This document shows, one piece after another, positions 1,757 through 49,045 of a stretch of 64,000 bases of DNA. The stretch's first letter is position 1; the number at the start of each line of letters is the position of its first letter. The position numbers and the translations under genes were made by a program. Below the pieces are notes generated by a model. The model was not told the DNA's origin and did not search any database. It saw only the letters and a list, made by a program, of their open reading frames with translations. The stretch is from Kiritimatiellia bacterium (lineage in GTDB: Bacteria; Verrucomicrobiota; Kiritimatiellia; RFP12; UBA1067), in assembly GCA_017454745.1 (NCBI GenBank), contig JAFTCL010000029.1, forward strand, positions 23,968 to 87,967, given 5' to 3'.

Positions 1757-4700
1757 GTGGGCCGGCTTTGGAAAGGACAGGGCACTGTGGACGATAATAT
1801 GGCCAAATCGGTTCTTAATGGATTTGATGTGTGTAACGCCACATTGGCGAAGCCGGGGGCGCGACACTATCGAACGTTGACGGCGGGATGTTGTCTGGCG
1901 CTTGGAATCATTGCTGTTGGAAACGCCGTGGCGGCACCGGAAAACGGCAGGTATATCCATGTGCGCCTTGAGCGTATCCCAGCGATATTGTCGATTGCGG
2001 AACTTGAGGCGTTCGCCGGCGGAGATAATGTGGCCAAGGGACGTCCCGCGTTCCAGAGTACGGTGGGTTACGGCGGCGTTCCGGCGCGGGCGGTGGACGG
2101 CAACACCAATCCCGACTGGGGCAGCGAGACCATAACGCACACCGACGAGGGGCGCAAGAACAGCCCGCAGTGGTGGGAGGTGGATCTTGGAAAAAACGTC
2201 GAGGTGTCCAAGATCGTGCTGCATAACCGAAAGGGGTACAGCCACCGTTCCGACGGCGTGCAGGTGTTGCTGCTTGACGAGCGCCGACGCGTGGTGCGCG
2301 GCAAGACGTTCGCCGACGCGGGACCGCTGGTTCTGGAGATGGATCTTGCGACGGAAGCGTGCGCGGAATGTGCCGGAGAGGAAATCGAAGACGTGACCGT
2401 GCCGCCAGCCACGCCGGCAGAGATACGCGCCGCATACGAAAAACGGGCCACATGGGTTGATTCCGTTGCGGCAACGGCGGCAAAGCTGCGCCGGTACCAG
2501 ACGCTGCTGCCGCTTATCGACCGGTTGGTGGAGGACTTCCCGGACCATGCGGAGGAGATAGTGGGGAATCTCGGTTCCGGGAATTTCTCGAAAGCCGAGC
2601 TGATGAAGGGCGCACCGAAGCTTGCGTCCACATCCGACGAGTCCAAATTGCTTGCGCTTGAGACGCTGAAGTGGTTCAACGCCGCCGCGATGGAACGCGC
2701 CATCCGCGCTTACTCCGCCAAATACCCTAGTGCATACGGTGATCCTGCCGCGTTGCTGGCAAGGCTTGCGGAGGTTAAGAAGTCTATTGAGGGTGCGGCG
2801 AACGAAGAGACGAGACTTAATGCTGCGGCGGCCCTTATGAAGTTACAGGACGATTTGTTCCTGCGCCATCCCGCCGTTGATTTCACGCATTTTTTGATGG
2901 TCAAGCGCAGTCGAAAATCACATTCAGGTCTGCCGCACAATTGGCAGGGCAACTCATCTGTGCCGTTGGAGGGGTATTTGAACGCCATTGTTTCATTGCC
3001 GATTCGCCGTGGCACGGGAGAGCGAGGGCGTACCATTGCCGCGTCGAATTATTTTCTTGGGGACGTCGATCTGGACTTCGATGCGGACAAGATCGCCTAT
3101 TCTGGCGGTCTCGACAGCGAAAAACGATGGTGCGTACTTGAAACGCGCCTTGATAAGCCTCTTGTCAAGACGCTCAAAACGCCTTCCGGTATGAACGACA
3201 TCGATTGTTACGACCCTTGCTATCTTCCCGACGGCCGCATGCTGTTCGTCTCCACCAGCGGCTTTCACGGCGTGCCGTGCGTTACCGGTTCCGACTATGT
3301 GGGCAACACGCATCTTCTTGAAAAGGATGGCGGGGTGAAACGCCTGGTGTTCGATCAGGACAACAGCTGGTGTCCCGTGGTGATGAACAACGGCCGTGTT
3401 CTCTATTTGAGATGGGAATACACCGACAGCGCACATTACTTCTCCCGCGTTATGATGACCATGAACGTGGACGGCTCCGACCAAAAGGCGTTCTACGGGT
3501 CGAACTCTTACTGGCCGAACTCGCTGTTTTACGCACGGCCGCTGCCGGGATCCGTCACGAAATTTTGCGGGATAGCTTCCGGCCACCACGGTTGTGCGCG
3601 CGAGGGAGAACTGGTACTCTTCGACGTGATGAAAGGGAGGAACGAAACGGAAGGTGTGATCCAGCGTATACCGGGATGGGGTAAGCCCGTTGCGAACAAG
3701 GCGCGCGACCAATTGGTGAACGGTTCGAGTCCGCGTTTCCTCCACCCGTATCCGCTGGCCGACGAGCTTTTCCTGACATCCGTCCACCGCGGCAACGGCG
3801 ACCCGTTCATCGTGGCCTTCGCGGACATTTATGACAACATCGTTCCCGTGTGCGTCTCTGCCGACTGGAACTGTCTGGAGCCGTTGCCGATAAAGAAACG
3901 CAGTCGTCCGCAGATGTCCGTGGACAGGCGCAACGACGCTGTTGACACCTGCACCGTCTATCTTCAGAATGTTAATTTCGGCGCGGGTCTGAAGGGCGTT
4001 CCGAACAATGTGGCCAAAAAACTCCGCCTGTTCTCCTACAGTTATTCGCCGCGCAACGTGGGCGGCCACTACAACATTGGTTTCGAGGGACCGTGGGACA
4101 TTCGCAACATCCTTGGCGAGGTGGAACTGGAAAAGGACGGCAGCGCGATCTTCACCGTCCCCGCCAATACGCCGTTCGCCATCCAACCGTTGGACTCAAA
4201 CGGATGCAAGCTTCAGGAGATGCGCTCGTGGTTTGTGGGCGTTCCCGGAGAGGTGATTTCCTGCACGGGATGCCACGAGAACCAGAACGAGGCACCGCCC
4301 GCGGCCAACTCCATCGCGGCGCGGAAGCGTCCGCAAACACCCGCGCCGTGGTACGGTCCGCGCCGCAACTATGCGTTTTTGCGCGAGGTGCAGCCGGTGC
4401 TCGACCGGAAATGCGTTGGATGCCACAACCCGAACAGCGGGCTAAAGACGCGGATGGGTGCGCCGTTGCCGGACTTCGACGGCAGCAAGATGGAGGGACA
4501 CTACTCCAGGGCCTATGTCAATTTGATGCCTTACGTGCGGAGGAACGGTCCCGAGGGCGACTACCATCTGCTTACGCCGCTGGAGTTTCACGTGTCAACG
4601 TCCGAACTGTACCAACGGCTTGAAAAGGGGCATCACAATGTGAAGCTCACCGCCGAAGAGTGGTCGAGAATCGTCACCTGGATGGATCTTAACGTTCCTT

Positions 4701-5827
4701 TCTGGGGCACTTGGACCGAGGAGACCGGCGGGAACCAGCGTACCCAGATGAATTTGGCCCGCAGAAAAGAGATGGCGTTGAAATGGGCCGGCGACAAGTA
4801 TGACCCCGAGAAGATCGGGAATCCATACGTTCCCGGCACGGAGCGTTTCGAGGCGCCGCCCGCAGGGGAGAAGTCGAATAAAGAGATTAAAGTCGAAGGC
4901 TGGCCGTTCGCCGCCACGCGGGCGAAAGAGATGCAGGGCGAAAATAAGCCTCGCACGTTAGACATCGGGAGCGGCGAGCAGTTGGAGTTCGCGTACATCC
5001 CCGCCGGCTCTTTCGCGATGGGTTCAAACGAACTTACGCCCGCCGAGCGCCCGGTGTGCAAAGCCACGATCGGCAAAGGATTCTGGATGGCGACGAAAGA
5101 GATCACACAGGGGCAGTTCCGTCTAATGGACCCGAATTTCGACAACGGAGTGTACGACAAACATTACAAAGACCAGGTGAATCGCGGTTACTACATGGGC
5201 GGTCGGGATCCGGATTTCGCCCAGCCCGGCAACGAGAAGTTCCCCGCCATCCGCGTGAGCTGGGACATGGCGCAGCAGTATTGCGCGTGGCTCTCGAAGC
5301 GGCTTGGCAGGAAGGTCCGCCTGCCCACCGAGGCCGAATGGGAGTGGGCCTGCCGCGCCGGAACGGACACCGAATTCAACTACGGTACAAAAGACGATGA
5401 CTTCTCCAAGCATGAGAACATGGCCGACTATATGTTTATCGAGCTGGCCGTGGTTGGGGTGAATCCGCAGCCGTTTGCCCGCGGCGATGATCCGCAGCCG
5501 AAAAATCTGCCGCCCGCGCTGTGGGATTACGAGTTGCGTGACCGCCGCTTCAACGACCATGTGCTTCATCTTGCGAAGGTTGGCAGCTACGCGCCCAACG
5601 TCTGGGGGCTTTACGATATGCACGGAAACGTAGCGGAGTGGACATCAAGCCCGTGGCGGTCTTACCCTTATGACGAGAAAACTGCTGACGGCGATCTTAA
5701 AGTAGTGCGCGGCGGATCGTGGTACCGGCGTCCGGTGGTTAGCTCAAGCGCCTGGCGTTGGCGCTATCCGTCATGGATGCGTCCGTTCGATGTTGGATTC
5801 CGCGTGGTCGTAGAGGATCTGCCATGA
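1757..5827 (+). CDS. Large secreted multi-domain protein: N-terminal F5/8 type C (discoidin) domain, central Planctomycete-cytochrome-like region with two CxxCH haem motifs, and a C-terminal formylglycine-generating-enzyme (SUMF1/FGE) family domain.
   Basis: 1356-aa ORF. Signal-peptide-like TAGCCLALGIIAVGNAVAA; an alternative start at MAKS (1799) is possible. Discoidin-like block AVDGNTNPDWGSE...WWEVDLGK. Motifs CTGCHENQ and CVGCHNPNSG. FGE hallmarks RVSWDMAQQYCAWL, LPTEAEWEWACRAG, NVWGLYDMHGNVAEWTSS and VVRGGSWY. Confidence 0.7.
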   Translation: MGRLWKGQGTVDDNMAKSVLNGFDVCNATLAKPGARHYRTLTAGCCLALGIIAVGNAVAAPENGRYIHVRLERIPAILSIAELEAFAGGDNVAKGRPAFQSTVGYGGVPARAVDGNTNPDWGSETITHTDEGRKNSPQWWEVDLGKNVEVSKIVLHNRKGYSHRSDGVQVLLLDERRRVVRGKTFADAGPLVLEMDLATEACAECAGEEIEDVTVPPATPAEIRAAYEKRATWVDSVAATAAKLRRYQTLLPLIDRLVEDFPDHAEEIVGNLGSGNFSKAELMKGAPKLASTSDESKLLALETLKWFNAAAMERAIRAYSAKYPSAYGDPAALLARLAEVKKSIEGAANEETRLNAAAALMKLQDDLFLRHPAVDFTHFLMVKRSRKSHSGLPHNWQGNSSVPLEGYLNAIVSLPIRRGTGERGRTIAASNYFLGDVDLDFDADKIAYSGGLDSEKRWCVLETRLDKPLVKTLKTPSGMNDIDCYDPCYLPDGRMLFVSTSGFHGVPCVTGSDYVGNTHLLEKDGGVKRLVFDQDNSWCPVVMNNGRVLYLRWEYTDSAHYFSRVMMTMNVDGSDQKAFYGSNSYWPNSLFYARPLPGSVTKFCGIASGHHGCAREGELVLFDVMKGRNETEGVIQRIPGWGKPVANKARDQLVNGSSPRFLHPYPLADELFLTSVHRGNGDPFIVAFADIYDNIVPVCVSADWNCLEPLPIKKRSRPQMSVDRRNDAVDTCTVYLQNVNFGAGLKGVPNNVAKKLRLFSYSYSPRNVGGHYNIGFEGPWDIRNILGEVELEKDGSAIFTVPANTPFAIQPLDSNGCKLQEMRSWFVGVPGEVISCTGCHENQNEAPPAANSIAARKRPQTPAPWYGPRRNYAFLREVQPVLDRKCVGCHNPNSGLKTRMGAPLPDFDGSKMEGHYSRAYVNLMPYVRRNGPEGDYHLLTPLEFHVSTSELYQRLEKGHHNVKLTAEEWSRIVTWMDLNVPFWGTWTEETGGNQRTQMNLARRKEMALKWAGDKYDPEKIGNPYVPGTERFEAPPAGEKSNKEIKVEGWPFAATRAKEMQGENKPRTLDIGSGEQLEFAYIPAGSFAMGSNELTPAERPVCKATIGKGFWMATKEITQGQFRLMDPNFDNGVYDKHYKDQVNRGYYMGGRDPDFAQPGNEKFPAIRVSWDMAQQYCAWLSKRLGRKVRLPTEAEWEWACRAGTDTEFNYGTKDDDFSKHENMADYMFIELAVVGVNPQPFARGDDPQPKNLPPALWDYELRDRRFNDHVLHLAKVGSYAPNVWGLYDMHGNVAEWTSSPWRSYPYDEKTADGDLKVVRGGSWYRRPVVSSSAWRWRYPSWMRPFDVGFRVVVEDLP

Positions 5828-42739: not shown

Positions 42740-44179
42740 TCAGTACGATCCAAGTAGTTTCGCAAACGGAATTATTGCGTCGAAATACCCGTCGGCCTCC
42801 ACAATCGGGGCGAGATGCCCTTCATACACGAGTGCGGTGCGCACGGAGATACCGGCGCGGCGAGGAAGCCGTTTCGTTTTCTCCACCATTTCATCGATCA
42901 CTTCGCGTCCAATATCCCTGCGGCGCTTAATCTCGACAATACACATCGATCTTCTAGTCTGTATGAGCAGGTCGATCTGCACACCACTCTTGGAACCGTC
43001 ACGTGATGCCGCGCGTCTGTAAGGTGCGGCGGAGATAATCTGCGCATTGCCCATCCCAAGCATACTTACGAGGCCGCCGAGGTTCGCCAGCACTAAGTTC
43101 TCAAACTGAAGACCCATTGTGGAATCCCAGCCGTCGAGACTGTCGAGCGAACCGAAGGCGAAAGCATTGCGGTCGATGACGTCTTTCACCGGTTCAATGT
43201 ACTTGAGGTAGAACCGCGAGTAGTTGTCGTTAAGCCTGTAGCGCGACTCCCTGACATTCCTTCCGCTCTGCGGATTCACGCCGCCGTCGTTGACGACAAG
43301 CCCGCACTCTGCAAGTTGCTCTAGAGAATCGGAAATGCGCCCGCCTCGTTCCATCCCAATTTCTCGGGCGATTTCGCTTACGCTACGCGGTGCACCCTTG
43401 AGGCATCGGAGAACAGATGCCGTAAACTGCGGTTGCCGCGTTACGACATCCGAGAACATTTCATCGAAATCCTCCCGTAGCGGACTCTTTGGGAGGAAAC
43501 ACAGCCTTCGAATGTTCTCATTCGCCGATTCGGACGTATCAATCTCCTCAAGGTAGCGGGGAATTCCGCCCGTCACTGAAAGCACGTCGATAATTTCTCT
43601 AGGATCAAGCCTTGCCGCAGCCTTTCCCCAGAACTTTGCACATTCGCACACGGGAAGTTCGGGAACCACGATGTCGAGCGAACGCCTGCCGTAGAAACTC
43701 CCGTCCTCAAGTATGTTGTCCCTTATCCATGACGAAACACTTCCGCATAACACGAACACGAGCCTTGGATGCTTCTTGAAATGGTCATCCCATACTCCCT
43801 TCAGCGTACCGGCGAACAAGGGATCGTAATGCGCCATCCACGATATTTCGTCGAGAAGGACAACCGTCTTTTCGTTGTCGCGGATCTGCCCGTTCAGTCG
43901 AAGGAATGCGTTGAGCCAGTTGTTCGGAACGGAGGAGTCGCATCTGGTCTGGGCGGCAAGCTTCACCGCAAAGTTCTCAAGCTCCATGCTATTGTTTAAC
44001 TTCGCTCTAGGTTTTATCCCCTCGATCTTGATGAATCGTGCACCTGCTCTTTCGGCAAATTTCTCGATCAGGGTCGATTTGCCCACCCTTCGCCTTCCTC
44101 TGCAGGTGACGAACGAGGAAGTCCTCTTCCTAAAAAGGGAATCCAACCGTCCAATGAGTTCTTCGCGTCCAAAAAACAT
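42740..44179 (-). CDS. AAA-family ATP-binding protein of the DUF234/archaeal-ATPase type.
   Basis: FFGREELIGRLDS...VTCRGRRRVGKSTLIEKF Walker A. Walker B VVLLDEISW. C-terminal DUF234-like region. Local GC about 50% against about 62% in the flanks. Confidence 0.7.
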   Translation of the reverse strand: MFFGREELIGRLDSLFRKRTSSFVTCRGRRRVGKSTLIEKFAERAGARFIKIEGIKPRAKLNNSMELENFAVKLAAQTRCDSSVPNNWLNAFLRLNGQIRDNEKTVVLLDEISWMAHYDPLFAGTLKGVWDDHFKKHPRLVFVLCGSVSSWIRDNILEDGSFYGRRSLDIVVPELPVCECAKFWGKAAARLDPREIIDVLSVTGGIPRYLEEIDTSESANENIRRLCFLPKSPLREDFDEMFSDVVTRQPQFTASVLRCLKGAPRSVSEIAREIGMERGGRISDSLEQLAECGLVVNDGGVNPQSGRNVRESRYRLNDNYSRFYLKYIEPVKDVIDRNAFAFGSLDSLDGWDSTMGLQFENLVLANLGGLVSMLGMGNAQIISAAPYRRAASRDGSKSGVQIDLLIQTRRSMCIVEIKRRRDIGREVIDEMVEKTKRLPRRAGISVRTALVYEGHLAPIVEADGYFDAIIPFAKLLGSY

Positions 44180-44249
44180 TTCAAAACCTCATAAGTGATT
44201 CTTGGTTGAAAAATTTATCATAATCTTTCCGATTCTGTCAATAACACTT

Positions 44250-44339
44250 TGTCACATTATTTAATTTTTCTCAATAATGTGACAAAAATTACACTGCAAA
44301 AATCTGTCACATTATTGAGTTATACCTAATAATGTGACA
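44250..44339. promoter_or_regulatory. Two copies of a 12-bp inverted repeat with an 11-bp spacer (operator-like) in the AT-rich region upstream of the ATPase gene.
   Basis: TGTCACATTATT (44250-44261), 11 nt, AATAATGTGACA (44273-44284). Then TGTCACATTATT (44305-44316), 11 nt, AATAATGTGACA (44328-44339). Arms are perfect and identical in both copies. Confidence 0.6.
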
Positions 44340-44975
44340 TTTCTGATCTTACCCCGCCCACGATCGTTTACGGGAAGGTCCGTTTGTCCGTTCGCGTCAA
44401 GCAAGCCGAGAGGCGCCATTTCTGTGATACATCCCTCGCATATGCGCTCATAAAGCTCATTTCGGAGCCTGCACCCCAAAGGCGGCGGACGGGAGATCGG
44501 GTGTTTGAGTGCGAGTCACCATCGGGGAATGCAGTTTGGCGAACTTTCCTCTTGATGGAGGTTACTGGAATATGGTATATTTTAATTACCGTAATTGAGG
44601 GGAGTCTCAATCGCGGATGCTCTTTAACTTCGGTGGGTGCAGCAGATGGCCCACCACCGGGCCGAAACCTGTGTCGCGACGGTGTTTCGCTGTAGCGAAT
44701 AGGCCAAGGCCAAGAACCTCGGTTAACTTGCAATTGTAGAACGGACGGCTTGCCAGTTTCCGAATAGATTGTGATATGCCGGGGAGCCAGTGATCCCAAA
44801 AGGGCTCTGGAATCTTCTCCTTTGCTACGCAAGTGGCTAAGGAGGTAACGTACGCAACTGCGTAAAGTAACTTCGTAGAAAAGACCGCTAATCTTACGAT
44901 GGGGTGAAATACGGTGGTGCGTCGCGTGATGTTCACGCGGCGTGCTTTCCTATTCATGTTCCATCAAAGGCTTTT

Positions 44976-45029
44976 AGCGGCGCCTTCTACGAGACTTGAA
45001 TTTCGAGAGTGCGCCGCTCTTCTTTTTTT
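44976..45029 (+). terminator. Rho-independent terminator on the + strand.
   Basis: AGCGGCGC stem, loop, GCGCCGCT, followed by CTTCTTTTTTT. Confidence 0.65.
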
Positions 45030-45034
45030 GCTGA

Positions 45035-45116: not shown

Positions 45117-46193
45117 ATGAGAAGGTTGTTGATCATGGCACTTGTTGTTGCATGTGCTGTTGGATACGCCATAGGTGCCGATGGCGAGGAGGACGCTCCT
45201 TCGGGAACGCAGAAGGTGATGCTTAAGATTGCGACCGTGGAAACGCCAGATACCCGTACCGCGAAGACATGGAATCCACCGGCCACACCGATGACCCTTC
45301 AGGAGCTACCACATACCGAGGCGGATATCGCCAATGCAACGCCGGAGGAAGCTAGGCAGATGGCAAAGGAGAACCGCGTCAAAAAACTGGCTAACCAGGG
45401 GATTCAGGCCGCCATCGCAACGGATGCCTATTTGAAGGCCCAACAGCACTTCGAGGGTGTAAGGAAAAAACTTGAGGGAACCGTGTTTGGCAAGCAGGTA
45501 ATTCTCGCTGTCGATAAGTTTGCCGGAATAGCCGGTGAATGTTTCGATCCTGATTGCATTGAGTTCTTCCACCGTATGGACAATGACGAGGGCGACAAGG
45601 AGCAGTTCTTACAGGATATGAAGAGTACGGATACGCTTTGCGCACCGTATTTCATAAAGCTCATCTTCGACAATCCTCGCCATGAATCTGGAAAAGTCGT
45701 TATGAACGGGCAGGAGATTAAGCGCTCGAAGACAACCATCACCATCACATATCAGGTACAGGCGCTTAATGGCCGTATGATCACGTCAGGCATGGTGAAG
45801 GAAGAGAAAATGACCAAGACATCCAATGCCGTACAGCGGTCAGGAACAGATGAAGGTGTTCTCATAGACACTATTGAGGAAGCGCTTCGAAAAGTGGCCA
45901 AGCGCATCAATGATCATTTCGTCGCGAAAGTTACGATTAAGGCCGTTTCGGCTGGCGGCAAGAAGGATGAGGATTTCGATGCCGAAGCCGCAACCGTTGA
46001 GCTTGACGGTGAATCTGCGGAGATTGACACCGAGATATCCATCATGAAAGGCAAGCACACCATCGTTATCGATCTTGATGAGTACAAGCAAAGAGGGTCC
46101 ACGTCTTTCAATATCAGAAAGTCTGGTCCGATCAAGATTGTTCTCAAAAAGAAGGAAGCTCCGCCGAAGAAGGAAGCCAAGGATGACGAGTAA
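45117..46193 (+). CDS. Secreted hypothetical protein (island gene A), distantly CsgG/LpoB-like.
   Basis: Signal peptide MRRLLIMALVVACAVGYAIGA. No known catalytic motif. GC about 50%. Confidence 0.55.
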   Translation: MRRLLIMALVVACAVGYAIGADGEEDAPSGTQKVMLKIATVETPDTRTAKTWNPPATPMTLQELPHTEADIANATPEEARQMAKENRVKKLANQGIQAAIATDAYLKAQQHFEGVRKKLEGTVFGKQVILAVDKFAGIAGECFDPDCIEFFHRMDNDEGDKEQFLQDMKSTDTLCAPYFIKLIFDNPRHESGKVVMNGQEIKRSKTTITITYQVQALNGRMITSGMVKEEKMTKTSNAVQRSGTDEGVLIDTIEEALRKVAKRINDHFVAKVTIKAVSAGGKKDEDFDAEAATVELDGESAEIDTEISIMKGKHTIVIDLDEYKQRGSTSFNIRKSGPIKIVLKKKEAPPKKEAKDDE

Positions 46194-46230
46194 TGTGTTT
46201 GTAAACTTCACACACCAGAAAGGATTGATC

Positions 46231-47217
46231 ATGAATAAGAGTATGTTTGCAGCAGTTGTCGTAGTCGCGTTGTCGTTTACGGGTTGTGTTTCGTACAAAG
46301 GTATCGCCGAGAAGGGAGACGATTTAGTGGATGAGGCCAACCAGCCTTATGCCAGCGCGGCGCAAACGGCATTTGAGGCGCGTGTGAAAGCGCCGCCGCG
46401 TCCGGTAGTAATCAATGAGGCTCCAGGTTTGAACCAGTTTCTTGCACCGACGGCTGCCGGGCATCCGCTTTGCCGGAATCTTGACGTTCGGAAGGAACTT
46501 GTATTGGCATTCAAGGGGCAACTTCGCGAAAAAGTCGCTGGAATCAAGGATTTCAAGCTTCTTGATGAGAATACGCCCATGGTGGAGGTCGTGGCCGAAG
46601 GAGATGCCGCTCCGCCCCAGAACTACTTGATGACTTACAACATCATCAGCATCGAATTGCGCGAAAACGCGGGAGGCAGTCTTGCTACTGGACTTGCAGG
46701 CGGAAAAGTTGCTGCCCAGAAATTCTGGGACGCGATTGCGAAGGTCGAGGTTCGCCTGTTCAAGCCAAACGGCACCGACTGTATTTTCTCATTTACTGGT
46801 GACGGCCTCTACAGAAAGATGGTTGACGAGAATAATCCATTGACGAAAGATTTGCTTCTTGGAGCAGTAAAAGATGCCGTCGATAAAGCGATGGCCGGGT
46901 ACGCGGAAAAGTTTGGCCCGCCAATCTTTGTTACTGACACCTGCCAGAACGGCCGGTTTGCCCGTCTTTCTGTTGGGTCAAAGTTCGGTGTTCAGGCTGC
47001 GCAGAAAGTGGAGTTCTTTTTCAATAAGGTGCGCAAGGGCGTGTCTGGCGAGGACGAGGTGGCTCGTCAGGTCGTGGGGTCTGGAGTTATCGGCGGAGGT
47101 AAGGCTCCTGTCGAGGATGACGGTGCTTGGGTGAAGGTTGATGACTATAATGCGGATAAGCGTACGGTACTCCGTTGGACATCCGCTCGAATCCTGCCTG
47201 TTGAGAAGAAGAAGTGA
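46231..47217 (+). CDS. Lipoprotein with a CsgG/LpoB-like fold (island gene B).
   Basis: Lipobox ALSFTGC. CsgG-family-like pattern LDVRKELVLAFKGQLREKVAGIKDFKLLDEN and NYLMTYNIISIELRE. RBS AGGA 8 nt upstream. Confidence 0.55.
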   Translation: MNKSMFAAVVVVALSFTGCVSYKGIAEKGDDLVDEANQPYASAAQTAFEARVKAPPRPVVINEAPGLNQFLAPTAAGHPLCRNLDVRKELVLAFKGQLREKVAGIKDFKLLDENTPMVEVVAEGDAAPPQNYLMTYNIISIELRENAGGSLATGLAGGKVAAQKFWDAIAKVEVRLFKPNGTDCIFSFTGDGLYRKMVDENNPLTKDLLLGAVKDAVDKAMAGYAEKFGPPIFVTDTCQNGRFARLSVGSKFGVQAAQKVEFFFNKVRKGVSGEDEVARQVVGSGVIGGGKAPVEDDGAWVKVDDYNADKRTVLRWTSARILPVEKKK

Positions 47218-47225
47218 GGTGCATT

Positions 47226-48173
47226 ATGAAGGTATTCAAATTAATGTTGTGTGTCGCCGCAGTTTCGGCGATGATTTTGCCTGTCCGGGCTGACGATGAC
47301 GAAGAGGGCGAAGATACGCGCCCATATGTCTCGATAAACAAGGAGGATGTTGTCAACAAAACTGACAACAAAACCGCCAATTTCAGGGCGCTGATAGATC
47401 GACTGAACAACGATCTCGTTGAGACGGGCCTTTATCGCGTCATGAGTATGGAGGATGCCATCAAGGCTGTCAAGAAAGCCGATCAGATGAGTGTTGTCGG
47501 GGATGATGGAGGCGGTGGAACGAAAATAACGACACCCGCGTTTTTCGTTGGCATGACTATTACGACATACGGCGTGACTACCGCGCGCAGTCAGAACGCG
47601 CTCACAAATGTGAAAATCGGTACGGAAGTTGCCAAGGTCGAGCTGATTCTCAAGGTTGTGGACGCTCGTTCTGCGGAAACGATCAAGTCAAAGAATATCG
47701 ATGCTTCGGCCTTTGGGCAACTTACCGGTGCGGCGGGCAATCTGCGCGAGCAGGTGCTCCAGAGTGCTGCAAAGAAGGCCTGCGAGAAGATTGTGTACGA
47801 ACTTATCAAGCTTACGCCGTTTGGCATCCTTGATGTTGAGAATGGAGTTGTAACGCTTGATGTACCCGGTTCGCTTAAGATTATGGGCAAACCGGTACAG
47901 ACAGGGACACAATTCGTTGTGTCGAAATTAGGAAAGGGTAAGAAGAGTAGGCGAACCGGCAAGGTGACACGCTCCGAAACGCAAGTTGCCGTGGTGAGCG
48001 TCACGTCTGTAGGAGAGGATTCATGCACGGCCAAGATCGTCAACGGTAAGATTGAGCCTATCGGAGATGATGAGGATACGCAGTATGATCCATACATCGT
48101 AAAAATCAATGAGGGTGCTGCCGGCACGCCTCCGCCGCCTCCGCCACCAGAAGATAACGGTGCGCCGTTCTAA
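47226..48173 (+). CDS. Secreted CsgG/LpoB-like protein with a poly-Pro C-terminal tail (island gene C).
   Basis: Signal peptide MKVFKLMLCVAAVSAMILPVRA. CsgG-like FRALIDRLNNDLVETGLYRVMSMEDAIKAVKK and KITTPAFFVGMTITTYGV. C-terminal PPPPPPPE. RBS GAGGTG. Confidence 0.55.
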   Translation: MKVFKLMLCVAAVSAMILPVRADDDEEGEDTRPYVSINKEDVVNKTDNKTANFRALIDRLNNDLVETGLYRVMSMEDAIKAVKKADQMSVVGDDGGGGTKITTPAFFVGMTITTYGVTTARSQNALTNVKIGTEVAKVELILKVVDARSAETIKSKNIDASAFGQLTGAAGNLREQVLQSAAKKACEKIVYELIKLTPFGILDVENGVVTLDVPGSLKIMGKPVQTGTQFVVSKLGKGKKSRRTGKVTRSETQVAVVSVTSVGEDSCTAKIVNGKIEPIGDDEDTQYDPYIVKINEGAAGTPPPPPPPEDNGAPF

Positions 48174-48203
48174 TGACGGATTCCGGACTGTTTGGAATCG
48201 GAC

Positions 48204-48232
48204 GGAGCTTCACCATTTGCCGGTGAAGCTCC
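48204..48232 (+). other. Perfect 11-bp stem hairpin between island genes C and D.
   Basis: GGAGCTTCACC, loop atttgcc, GGTGAAGCTCC. No T-run follows, so a classical terminator is uncertain. Confidence 0.35.
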
Positions 48233-48259
48233 GTTACTAGAAAGATGGAGAACTAATAT

Positions 48260-49045
48260 ATGAGAAGTGTGTGCTTTGTTTTCGCGGTGTTCGCGACCTT
48301 TTTAGTGGCTGTAGCCGAAACGCCGCTTGTTTCGGTCAATGTGATTGTTGCCACCAATACGGTGGGTGATGCCGATGCTGCGGCAAAGGCTGTGGCCGAA
48401 GTCGCAGAACGGACCGCACGGGCTGATGCGGCTCGGAAAAGAAGTTCCGTTGTGGTCAGTCAGTTGATTGCGGATATGAAACCTGTTCCGGGGCGGGTTT
48501 ACCTTCTCGGGCGTACGGAGGTCACTGCGGAGCAGTGGCATTCCGTCATGAAACCGGACGTTCCGTTTGTCGGCAAGGCTGATCTTCCGGTTTCTGGCGT
48601 AAGCTGGGACGATTGCCAGGATTTCATCAAGCGACTAAATGAACGTAGTGAGACAAGCGCTGAAGGATTGTCTTTCCGCCTTCCGACGGTCAAGGAATGG
48701 CGGCATGCGTGTCTGGCTGGCGCAAAGGGCAAATGGGGGCTTGTAACCGCAAAAACCGTGGGACAACTTGATTCCGTGGGATGGTATGCGGGAAACAGCG
48801 GAAGTCGAAAATCAGCCATCGCGCAGAAGACGCCTAATGTCTGGGGTTTCTATGATATGCACGGAAATGTTTTTGAATGGTGTTCCGATACGAGTCCGGA
48901 ATACGGCGGAGATTTCCGAATGCGAGTCGGTGGAAGTTTCAGATCACCATCCGAACAATGTGCGGCATCGTTTGCGAATAGTGCGAATAGGCAGTTTTCG
49001 CGATATGATGACCAGGGGGTTCGACTTATTTGTGAACGGCATTAA
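48260..49045 (+). CDS. Secreted formylglycine-generating-enzyme (SUMF1/FGE, DUF323) family protein (island gene D).
   Basis: Signal peptide. FGE hallmarks VSGVSWDDCQDF, LPTVKEWRHACLAG, NVWGFYDMHGNVFEWCSD and RVGGSF. Confidence 0.7.
   Translation: MRSVCFVFAVFATFLVAVAETPLVSVNVIVATNTVGDADAAAKAVAEVAERTARADAARKRSSVVVSQLIADMKPVPGRVYLLGRTEVTAEQWHSVMKPDVPFVGKADLPVSGVSWDDCQDFIKRLNERSETSAEGLSFRLPTVKEWRHACLAGAKGKWGLVTAKTVGQLDSVGWYAGNSGSRKSAIAQKTPNVWGFYDMHGNVFEWCSDTSPEYGGDFRMRVGGSFRSPSEQCAASFANSANRQFSRYDDQGVRLICERH

Follow-up and report, generated by a model that had tools for sequence, protein, structure and literature searches.

What do three adjacent genes for exported proteins build at the envelope of a bacterium from a little-studied group? 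The question is raised by a stretch of 64,000 nucleotides (nt), called the window below, from a Kiritimatiellia bacterium (GenBank assembly GCA_017454745.1, contig JAFTCL010000029.1, positions 23,968 to 87,967), in which genes A, B and C follow one another between window positions 45117 and 48173. A first-pass annotation had read them as exported proteins with likenesses to CsgG and LpoB, among them tandem CsgG-like paralogues, beside a protein resembling the formylglycine-generating enzyme (FGE). The results presented here describe A-B-C as an operon of three genes that stands by itself and is conserved among Kiritimatiellia-type bacteria of gut and rumen, encoding three Sec-exported envelope proteins. 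By analogy with known systems, its product may be a hetero-oligomeric, lipoprotein-anchored, membrane-tethered periplasmic scaffold or ring, like the H-ring of the Vibrio flagellum or the pre-pore form of CsgG, a reading to which a probability of about 0.45 is given.

Several lines of evidence support this reading. The predicted structures of B and C match FlgT across both of their domains, and sequence bridges lead to the CsgG, LpoB and GNA1162-like families of Pfam. A is tied to the others by a profile match to C and by PEGA domains in its family, the lipobox cysteine of B is invariant, and hairpins of the pore-forming kind are missing. Moreover, the order of the trio is fixed while its flanks differ each time, and variant gene clusters pair A-like proteins with LpoB, CsgG-Pfam and DUF1425 lipoproteins.

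Gene arrangement and export signals

Genes A (45117-46193, 358 amino acids), B (46231-47217, 328 amino acids) and C (47226-48173, 315 amino acids) all lie on the + strand, as does gene D after them (48260-49045, 261 amino acids), which encodes an exported protein with an FGE-sulfatase domain (PF03781, 3.3e-23). Gene A stands as in the list of open reading frames (ORFs), gene B starts at an internal ATG of the 46075 ORF, and gene C starts at its ATG rather than at the GTG at 47214; the start codons chosen for all three fit the N-termini of homologues in the family alignments. The gaps measure 37 nt between A and B and 8 nt between B and C, and purine-rich stretches resembling ribosome-binding sites stand 5' of each start (GGGGAAAGGGA for A, AAAGGA for B, GTGAGGTG for C), in agreement with the first-pass description of three closely spaced, co-oriented genes with good ribosome-binding sites. 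This tight spacing suggests that A and C are co-produced with B.

Export signals were read from the sequence together with family alignments. The signal peptide of A (MRRLLIMALVVACAVGYAIGA/DGEE, + strand) and the signal peptidase I-type signal of C (...SAMILPVRA/DDDEE) are both visibly hydrophobic, and C has neither a lipobox nor a conserved cysteine. The N-terminus of B runs ...VALSFTGC, with the lipobox FTGC and Cys19 at nt 46285-46287. In an alignment of 36 close homologues Cys19 is invariant and Gly18 nearly so, and Cys19 is also near-invariant in 70 distant relatives. The signals first noticed in all three proteins, and the lipobox in B, are thus borne out.

The two-domain plan of B and C

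AlphaFold2 (AF2) models were obtained for B (mean predicted local distance difference test, pLDDT, 84; predicted template modelling score, pTM, 0.75) and for C (pLDDT 73, pTM 0.69). The C model begins with an alpha/beta domain of CsgG/FlgT-like type (residues 34-196, nt 47325-47813, + strand), made of a first strand (34-44), two helices (54-67, 75-88), three long strands (105-123, 130-146, 151-167) and a last helix (173-196), and continues with a beta domain (201-294, nt 47826-48107, + strand) and a disordered Pro-rich tail. In the B model the corresponding elements come in the same order (57-63; 84-103; 132-146, 164-177, 184-199; 207-228), within a CsgG/LptE/FlgT-like alpha/beta domain spanning residues 57-228 (nt 46399-46914, + strand), followed by a C-terminal beta domain (232-321, nt 46924-47193, + strand). 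Between the lipid anchor of B and these domains, residues 35-53 are predicted with confidence as a helix (pLDDT about 90).

Foldseek comparison of both models with the PDB returned FlgT, CsgG, LptE, GNA1162 and HpaA at probability 1.00. FlgT gave the top matches, covering both domains over 295-303 columns at E 6e-12 to 1.7e-10 (B: 8z5n 6.2e-12 and 3w1e 1.7e-11, about 295 columns; C: 8z5n 7.8e-11 and 3w1e 1.7e-10, about 300 columns). CsgG, HpaA, GNA1162, LptE, Cj1090c and CT253 matched through the alpha/beta domain alone. For the CsgG structures 4uv2, 4uv3 and 6l7a, E ranged from 9e-7 to 1e-3 (probability 0.94-1.00, about 200-230 columns), the best being 4uv2, the non-lipidated pre-pore form (2e-5 for B). 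After FlgT, C matched CsgG at about 1e-6, followed by HpaA, GNA1162 (4HRV) and LptE, the last of which matched B at about 1e-4. The models show B and C to share one plan, an alpha/beta domain with a small beta domain of FlgT-C-like type. The comparison by AlphaFold and Foldseek that had been proposed at the outset, run on B and C, therefore gave the expected CsgG/LpoB-type alpha/beta domain; the supposed likeness to CsgG and LpoB stands at the level of the fold clan, but the nearest full-length solved structure is FlgT rather than either of them.

The helix-strand pattern that first suggested CsgG is present and conserved in both proteins. In B it reads LR.KV.GIKDFKL, then YLMTYNIISIEL; in the C family alignment L56, L60, L64, G68 and R71 are invariant (LIDRLNNDLVETGLYRV), followed by the strand FFVGMTITTYG. 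Relatives of both proteins reach the Pfam CsgG model (PF03783). Among 70 distant, equally sized lipoproteins related to B, 10 match it weakly (best 3.7e-9) and one weakly matches the LptE family; the close family of B, scanned member by member, gave no Pfam match. The same scan of 36 C-family members yielded 16 weak matches to CsgG (best 6.5e-6), six weak ones to LpoB (best 0.0065) and five to the GNA1162-like family PF05643, and a few members match DUF4136 or DUF3280. B and C of the window have no Pfam match at E<=1, and none of the three proteins has a Pfam or NCBIfam family of its own. As the PF03783 matches are weak and confined to relatives, they indicate kinship with CsgG at the superfamily level, not membership of its family. 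Searches of PDB sequences, with single sequences and with profiles, found nothing for A or B and sub-threshold matches for C: the C-family profile aligns to CsgG 83-180 (E 1.3), and its beta domain to the repeated beta domains of TsaP (3JC8) without significance (E 0.21).

The fold comparison also brings in LptE, and with it the suggestion that the trio supplies a plug or assembly partner for a large outer-membrane beta-barrel. At the level of single domains, LptE structures and Cj1090c match comparatively well (template modelling (TM) scores 0.44-0.58 normalised to the target, 165-190 columns), to which the single Pfam LptE match among distant B relatives may be added. However, B and C are about twice the size of LptE (about 320 versus about 190 amino acids) and have one domain more, the related loci described below show no barrel gene, lptD-like or otherwise, in conserved association with the trio (a Toluene_X gene follows it in one locus only), and the family is rare and clade-restricted, unlike an essential factor of lipopolysaccharide transport. 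An LptE-like role is accordingly considered very improbable.

Two further cysteines of B are conserved: Cys81 (about nt 46471-46473) lies in the alpha/beta domain and Cys238 (about nt 46942-46944) where the beta domain begins. In distant relatives they are mostly present or absent together. The pair recalls the inter-domain disulfide C115-C287 of FlgT.

Gene A and kinship among the three proteins

In protein A the signal peptide is followed by a mostly helical stretch at the N-terminal side, by what is probably an alpha/beta core (about residues 120-267), by a putative beta domain of PEGA-like type (about residues 268-345, nt 45918-46151, + strand) and by a tail rich in Lys and Glu. A protein search found 137 homologues. 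The beta domain was assigned from PEGA matches in the family: PF08308 is matched by 21 of 40 members (best 2e-9), in part owing to the long forms, which reach about 430 amino acids and bear an additional PEGA/CarboxypepD_reg copy at the C-terminus. Protein A of the window itself gave no PEGA match at E<=1 in the Pfam scan. Comparison of profiles by hhalign joined A172-311 to C100-234 over about 124 columns (E 4e-4 to 9e-4, probability 23-35%). A thus probably follows the plan of B and C as well, with a CsgG/FlgT-like core at about 120-267 and a beta domain that is PEGA-like where those of B and C resemble FlgT-C.

BLASTP showed no similarity between any two of the three proteins, and hhalign gave less than 1% probability for B against C and for A against B, even with distant members added. 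The pieces aligned in all three profile comparisons are nevertheless topologically equivalent (beta-hairpin, long helix, start of the beta domain), which is suggestive of one architecture, though not proof of it. The three appear to be very diverged proteins of one architecture, not recent duplicates. Of the tandem CsgG-like paralogues first proposed, the fold was confirmed by AF2 and Foldseek but a recognisable paralogy between B and C was not, and the term overstates their kinship.

Residues 131-158 of A (about nt 45507-45590) form an acidic/Cys/His motif of unusual conservation (A.DKFAG.AGE.FDPDCIEFFHRMD..E), many positions of which are invariant across short and long forms. It could be a metal-binding or interaction site.

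The question of a pore

The CsgG channel of the curli system is a 36-strand barrel to which every protomer contributes two amphipathic transmembrane hairpins, TM1 and TM2. Their places are taken here to be those generally given for CsgG, combined with the alignment of the C profile to it. The hairpin of C at the TM1 position is four residues shorter than in CsgG according to this alignment, and its tip (117-136) is polar on both faces throughout the family, with a mean hydropathy of about -3 to +1 and only two hydrophobic positions. The equivalent segment of B (147-163) is predicted with low confidence (pLDDT about 50), varies in length by insertions and deletions and is missing in some relatives. 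In the models, the third long strand is followed by the C-terminal helix after five residues in C (168-172) and seven in B (200-206), and loops this short leave no room for a TM2 hairpin.

A CsgG-like secretion channel in the outer membrane, in which B and/or C would form a lipid-anchored barrel exporting a substrate and A would be a periplasmic adaptor like CsgE or CsgF, could draw on the match of both alpha/beta domains to CsgG structures (best to the pre-pore 4uv2), on the family members that match PF03783, on the lipidation that B would share with CsgG and on the long beta-hairpin of C at the TM1 position. However, besides the lack of space for TM2 in either model, the polar tip in C and the variable segment in B, C has no lipobox, no curlin-like or other substrate gene is conserved near the trio in the related loci, and no curli component occurs among the Pfam annotations of its neighbours there. 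On the models, a curli-type beta-barrel made from B or C is unlikely, and the export channel as a whole is judged quite improbable; the pore-forming option first raised for these genes, together with its amphipathic hairpins, finds no support in them.

A conserved operon of three genes

Related loci, numbered with the prefix L, were found in three ways: by protein identity, in GTDB genomes, and in metagenomes via distant B relatives (from a three-sequence alignment). Their ORFs were sorted by hidden Markov models of the A, B and C families. In every locus of sufficient length (about 20 distinct loci) A, B and C keep their order and orientation, also where B identity is about 35-48% (L015-L020) and in a locus from a rumen metagenome-assembled genome (MAG; L014). 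Such constancy points to an association that is more than chance. An all-against-all comparison of the flanking ORFs revealed no other recurrent family, and the next gene after the trio may code for a GntR regulator, a transposase, GlnA, Toluene_X, a glycosyltransferase or EF-P.

No homologue of gene D was found in L001-L020, and its place after the trio is confined to the nearest relatives (L021). Gene D appears to be a recent, lineage-specific neighbour and not a core part of the system, which, given that D is not conserved with the trio and that the flanks differ, comprises A, B and C only. The FGE-like protein first seen as a neighbour of the CsgG-like genes does adjoin them in the window, but does not belong to the system. 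A role for D as a ring partner like PorK/GldK, raised by a weak match to TIGR03525 (2e-10), was ruled out on the same ground. Another FGE-sulfatase-like stretch, related to D (phmmer 3.6e-11), lies within a 1356-residue ORF at 1757-5827 of the window (+ strand).

A 13-bp hairpin of perfect pairing (ACGGAGCTTCACC / GGTGAAGCTCCGT, loop of 7 nt) read in the gap between C and D (48202-48234, + strand) is a possible operon end. It has no U-run and so does not figure in the list of the terminator scan. The neighbouring genes code for a GH106 rhamnosidase and a WbsX/GH99-like protein, both enzymes of glycan degradation, and an ATPase is also encoded upstream.

The B family is small: an exhaustive HMMER search with its profile through 1.84 billion representatives gave 89 clusters at E<=1e-3, of which 16 reach E<=1e-30. 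A genome scan gave nine loci, five with titles of Kiritimatiellia, Kiritimatiellaeota or Verrucomicrobia MAGs or of rumen 'RUG' bins, one from an uncultured bacterium and two with odd titles (Barnesiella, Anaerovoracaceae) that resemble binning errors. Named sources of the family are gut or rumen MAGs of Kiritimatiellia type. The few clusters and the source titles indicate a rare, clade-restricted family.

The G+C content of the trio (45117-48173) is 0.512, compared with 0.577 in the rest of the window. It is likewise lower in L003, L012, L023 and L031, though not in all loci, and in L003 the trio is placed between a recombinase and transposases. The low G+C content and the context in L003 hint at a mobile cassette.

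Two kinds of variant cluster were also observed. In L026 (925-5025; also in L027 and L028) a DUF1425 lipoprotein, an LpoB-family lipoprotein (PF13036, 1.7e-37), a 306-residue protein above the Pfam CsgG cut-off with a C-like beta domain, a long A-like PEGA protein and a 240-residue protein without assignment are encoded together. In L031 (3001-7156; also in L032) four genes code for a long A-like, a short A-like (259 amino acids), a B-like and a C-like protein, preceded by genes for a Ser/Thr kinase and a sigma factor of the extracytoplasmic function type. These variants suggest that A-like PEGA proteins habitually partner proteins of the CsgG/LpoB clan.

The first of these clusters bears on the possibility that the trio regulates peptidoglycan synthesis in the manner of LpoB, with membrane-anchored B, helped by A and C, activating or positioning a penicillin-binding protein or a hydrolase. 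In favour of this are the fold common to the LpoB clan, the weak LpoB matches in the C family, and the sister cluster itself, in which lipoproteins of the LpoB and DUF1425 (YcfL-like) families stand beside C-like and A-like genes. Yet neither B nor C reaches the LpoB model, the confident helix at B 35-53 takes the place of the long disordered linker of LpoB, the extra beta domains of B and C are foreign to LpoB, and no gene for a penicillin-binding protein is linked to the trio in any locus seen. An LpoB-like function is thus thought unlikely.

PADLOC did not place A-D among known defence proteins, and the literature searched held no description of an operon combining CsgG, FlgT and PEGA, or DUF1425, LpoB and CsgG. 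With A and B lacking a Pfam or NCBIfam family and no source giving a functional name, the first-pass judgement that this is not a described system is upheld; A-B-C appears to be previously undescribed.

A structured RNA upstream of the operon

The gap upstream of A measures 937 nt and contains a structured RNA of about 185 nt (44848-45032, + strand) whose 3' end lies 85 nt before the ATG of A. It consists of a small 5' hairpin, a long irregular hairpin and a terminator-like hairpin (45005-45021) with a U-run. Its sequence is 85% identical in L009 and 74% identical in L014 to DNA just upstream of A homologues (blastn, nhmmer), and its fold has a z-score of -4.57 on the + strand and -2.61 on the - strand. 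A covariance model (R1), built from three sequences, finds it upstream of an A-like gene, and on the same strand, in the window, L009 (4635-4824), L014 (4361-4547), L033/L034 (1144-1329 in L033), L012 (4655-4824), L007 (4674-4840), L023 (2779-2974) and L035 (261-427). Matches in L013 and L003 are marginal, and the trio loci L021 and L005 lack the RNA. The genes further upstream of it differ between loci.

In an alignment of seven sequences, canonical pairs fill 378 of 393 cells (96.2%) and 38 of 60 pairs show compensatory changes, whereas shuffled partners average 80.7% and reach at most 84.2%, with 16.6 compensatory pairs on average and no more than 24, and slid partners give 41-54%; these figures are inflated by the fitting of the alignment to the model, but the margin over the shuffles is large. 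Rfam scans of the RNA region gave no match, and a tRNA scan of the upstream region likewise found no known family. The element is a candidate cis-regulatory leader of the operon, with terminator, or a small RNA linked to the operon. A terminator/antiterminator switch pairing AGCGGCGC with GCGCCGCT was also considered and was dropped, as the pairing is not kept in L012, L007 and L023. Being well supported, unclassified and linked to a single operon, this structured RNA offers a directly testable candidate for cis-regulation.

Farther upstream, about 500 nt (44350-44848) hold unsupported short ORFs that have no Pfam match; they show no RNA family match and are not conserved in the related loci. 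The divergent gene beyond (42740-44179, - strand) codes for an ATPase_2/AAA protein with a helix-turn-helix domain, matched by PADLOC to the candidate defence family PDC-S27 (1.1e-73). Upstream of this gene, a long palindrome of repeated AATAATGTGACA / TGTCACATTATT units (44244-44345) may contain operator sites.

A proposed periplasmic scaffold or ring

A precedent for what such a set of proteins may build is provided by the H-ring of the Vibrio flagellum, a set of concentric rings tethered to the membrane and made of FlgT, which is periplasmic, and two lipoproteins, FlgP and FlgO. Both lipoproteins insert their C-terminal tails into adjacent rings, and the tail of FlgP, which ends at Phe143 in V. 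alginolyticus, sits in a groove on the ring of FlgT. It is from these features (three proteins of which two are lipoproteins, concentric tethered rings, C-terminal tails) that the scaffold or ring is proposed, by analogy, for A-B-C. Lipidated B would hold the assembly at the outer membrane, on its inner face, and A and C would be soluble periplasmic partners that bind B. The Pro-rich linker of C and its nearly invariant C-terminal Pro-Phe (nt 48117-48170, + strand), apparent from the family alignment, could serve as a docking tail in the manner of the FlgP and FlgO tails. The upstream RNA with its terminator may control the expression of the operon.

The same precedent allows a more literal reading, in which the trio is the Kiritimatiellia counterpart of FlgT, FlgP and FlgO around the flagellar LP-ring. 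FlgT is the best full-length structural match of both B and C, the H-ring is likewise made of three proteins and tethered by lipoproteins, and a full set of flagellar genes is present in a cultured relative, Pontiella agarivorans, although flagella were not observed in it. However, no flagellar gene stands beside the trio in about 20 genomic contexts, no MotX/MotY-type partners were seen, and none of Pfam's FlgT_N, FlgT_M or FlgT_C models is matched by the window proteins or appears among the 25 commonest families listed family-wide. A part of the flagellar outer ring is therefore a distinctly improbable identity for the trio.

Against the non-flagellar scaffold or ring several points must be set. 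Ring formation is argued by analogy, and the putative core of A from profile comparison. The TM-scores reported by Foldseek are low (0.26-0.31 for FlgT; 0.33-0.41 for CsgG, normalised to CsgG), which implies that domain orientations differ and that the likeness lies in the fold and the order of domains and does not extend to detailed geometry. No conserved neighbour gene in the related loci points to a scaffolded partner. A bolder version of the proposal, in which a non-flagellar, lipoprotein-tethered, Kiritimatiellia-specific ring machine is built from three FlgT/CsgG-fold proteins docking by their C-terminal tails and is governed by a new class of riboswitch-like leader RNA that senses an envelope-related signal, is put forward as doubtful.

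Comparison with known systems

Among solved structures, FlgT (3W1E, 8Z5N) resembles B and C in its alpha/beta and C-terminal beta domains and in its export to the periplasm. It differs in sequence (9-12% identity), in the domain arrangement implied by the TM-scores of 0.26-0.31, in having three domains in about 350-377 residues, and in its flagellar context, of which there is none beside the trio. Moreover, FlgT works with FlgP and FlgO, which are small single-domain lipoproteins, whereas two proteins of the trio follow the FlgT-like plan.

CsgG (PF03783; 4UV2, 4UV3) has the same alpha/beta core and is a lipoprotein, as B is predicted to be, and the helix motif singled out in the first-pass annotation is the signature helix of its family. 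B and C lack the second transmembrane hairpin of CsgG and end in a further beta domain that CsgG does not have, C carries no lipid anchor, and genes like csgA, csgB, csgE or csgF do not occur beside the trio. LpoB (PF13036) belongs to the same fold clan and is an outer-membrane lipoprotein acting in the periplasm. Its one small globular domain follows a long disordered linker, whereas B and C carry additional beta domains and have no such linker. To the pair of LpoB and DUF1425 (YcfL), the sister cluster adds one C-like protein that matches Pfam CsgG and one A-like protein with PEGA.

The GNA1162 (DUF799) cluster of Neisseria, with DUF4810 and a CsgG-like gene, is another case in which several envelope lipoproteins of one clan, of unknown function, are encoded together. 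Its components are of other families and sizes, without PEGA or FlgT-C-like domains, and in the trio one protein of three is a lipoprotein. TsaP (3JC8), which forms a ring around the secretin of the type IV pilus, resembles the proposed product of the trio in being a ring-forming accessory protein of the periplasm; it has LysM and no CsgG-like domain, and no secretin gene is linked to the trio.

The CsgG/LpoB/FlgT fold thus recurs in bacterial envelopes as the curli pore, an activator of a cell-wall enzyme and a brick of the flagellar H-ring. To these the trio brings a fixed set of three proteins, moving as a genomic unit in a poorly known clade of the gut and rumen and carrying no annotation in the databases searched. 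Learning what A, B and C assemble would extend the known uses of this fold and inform the little-studied envelope of the PVC (Planctomycetes-Verrucomicrobia-Chlamydiae) group.

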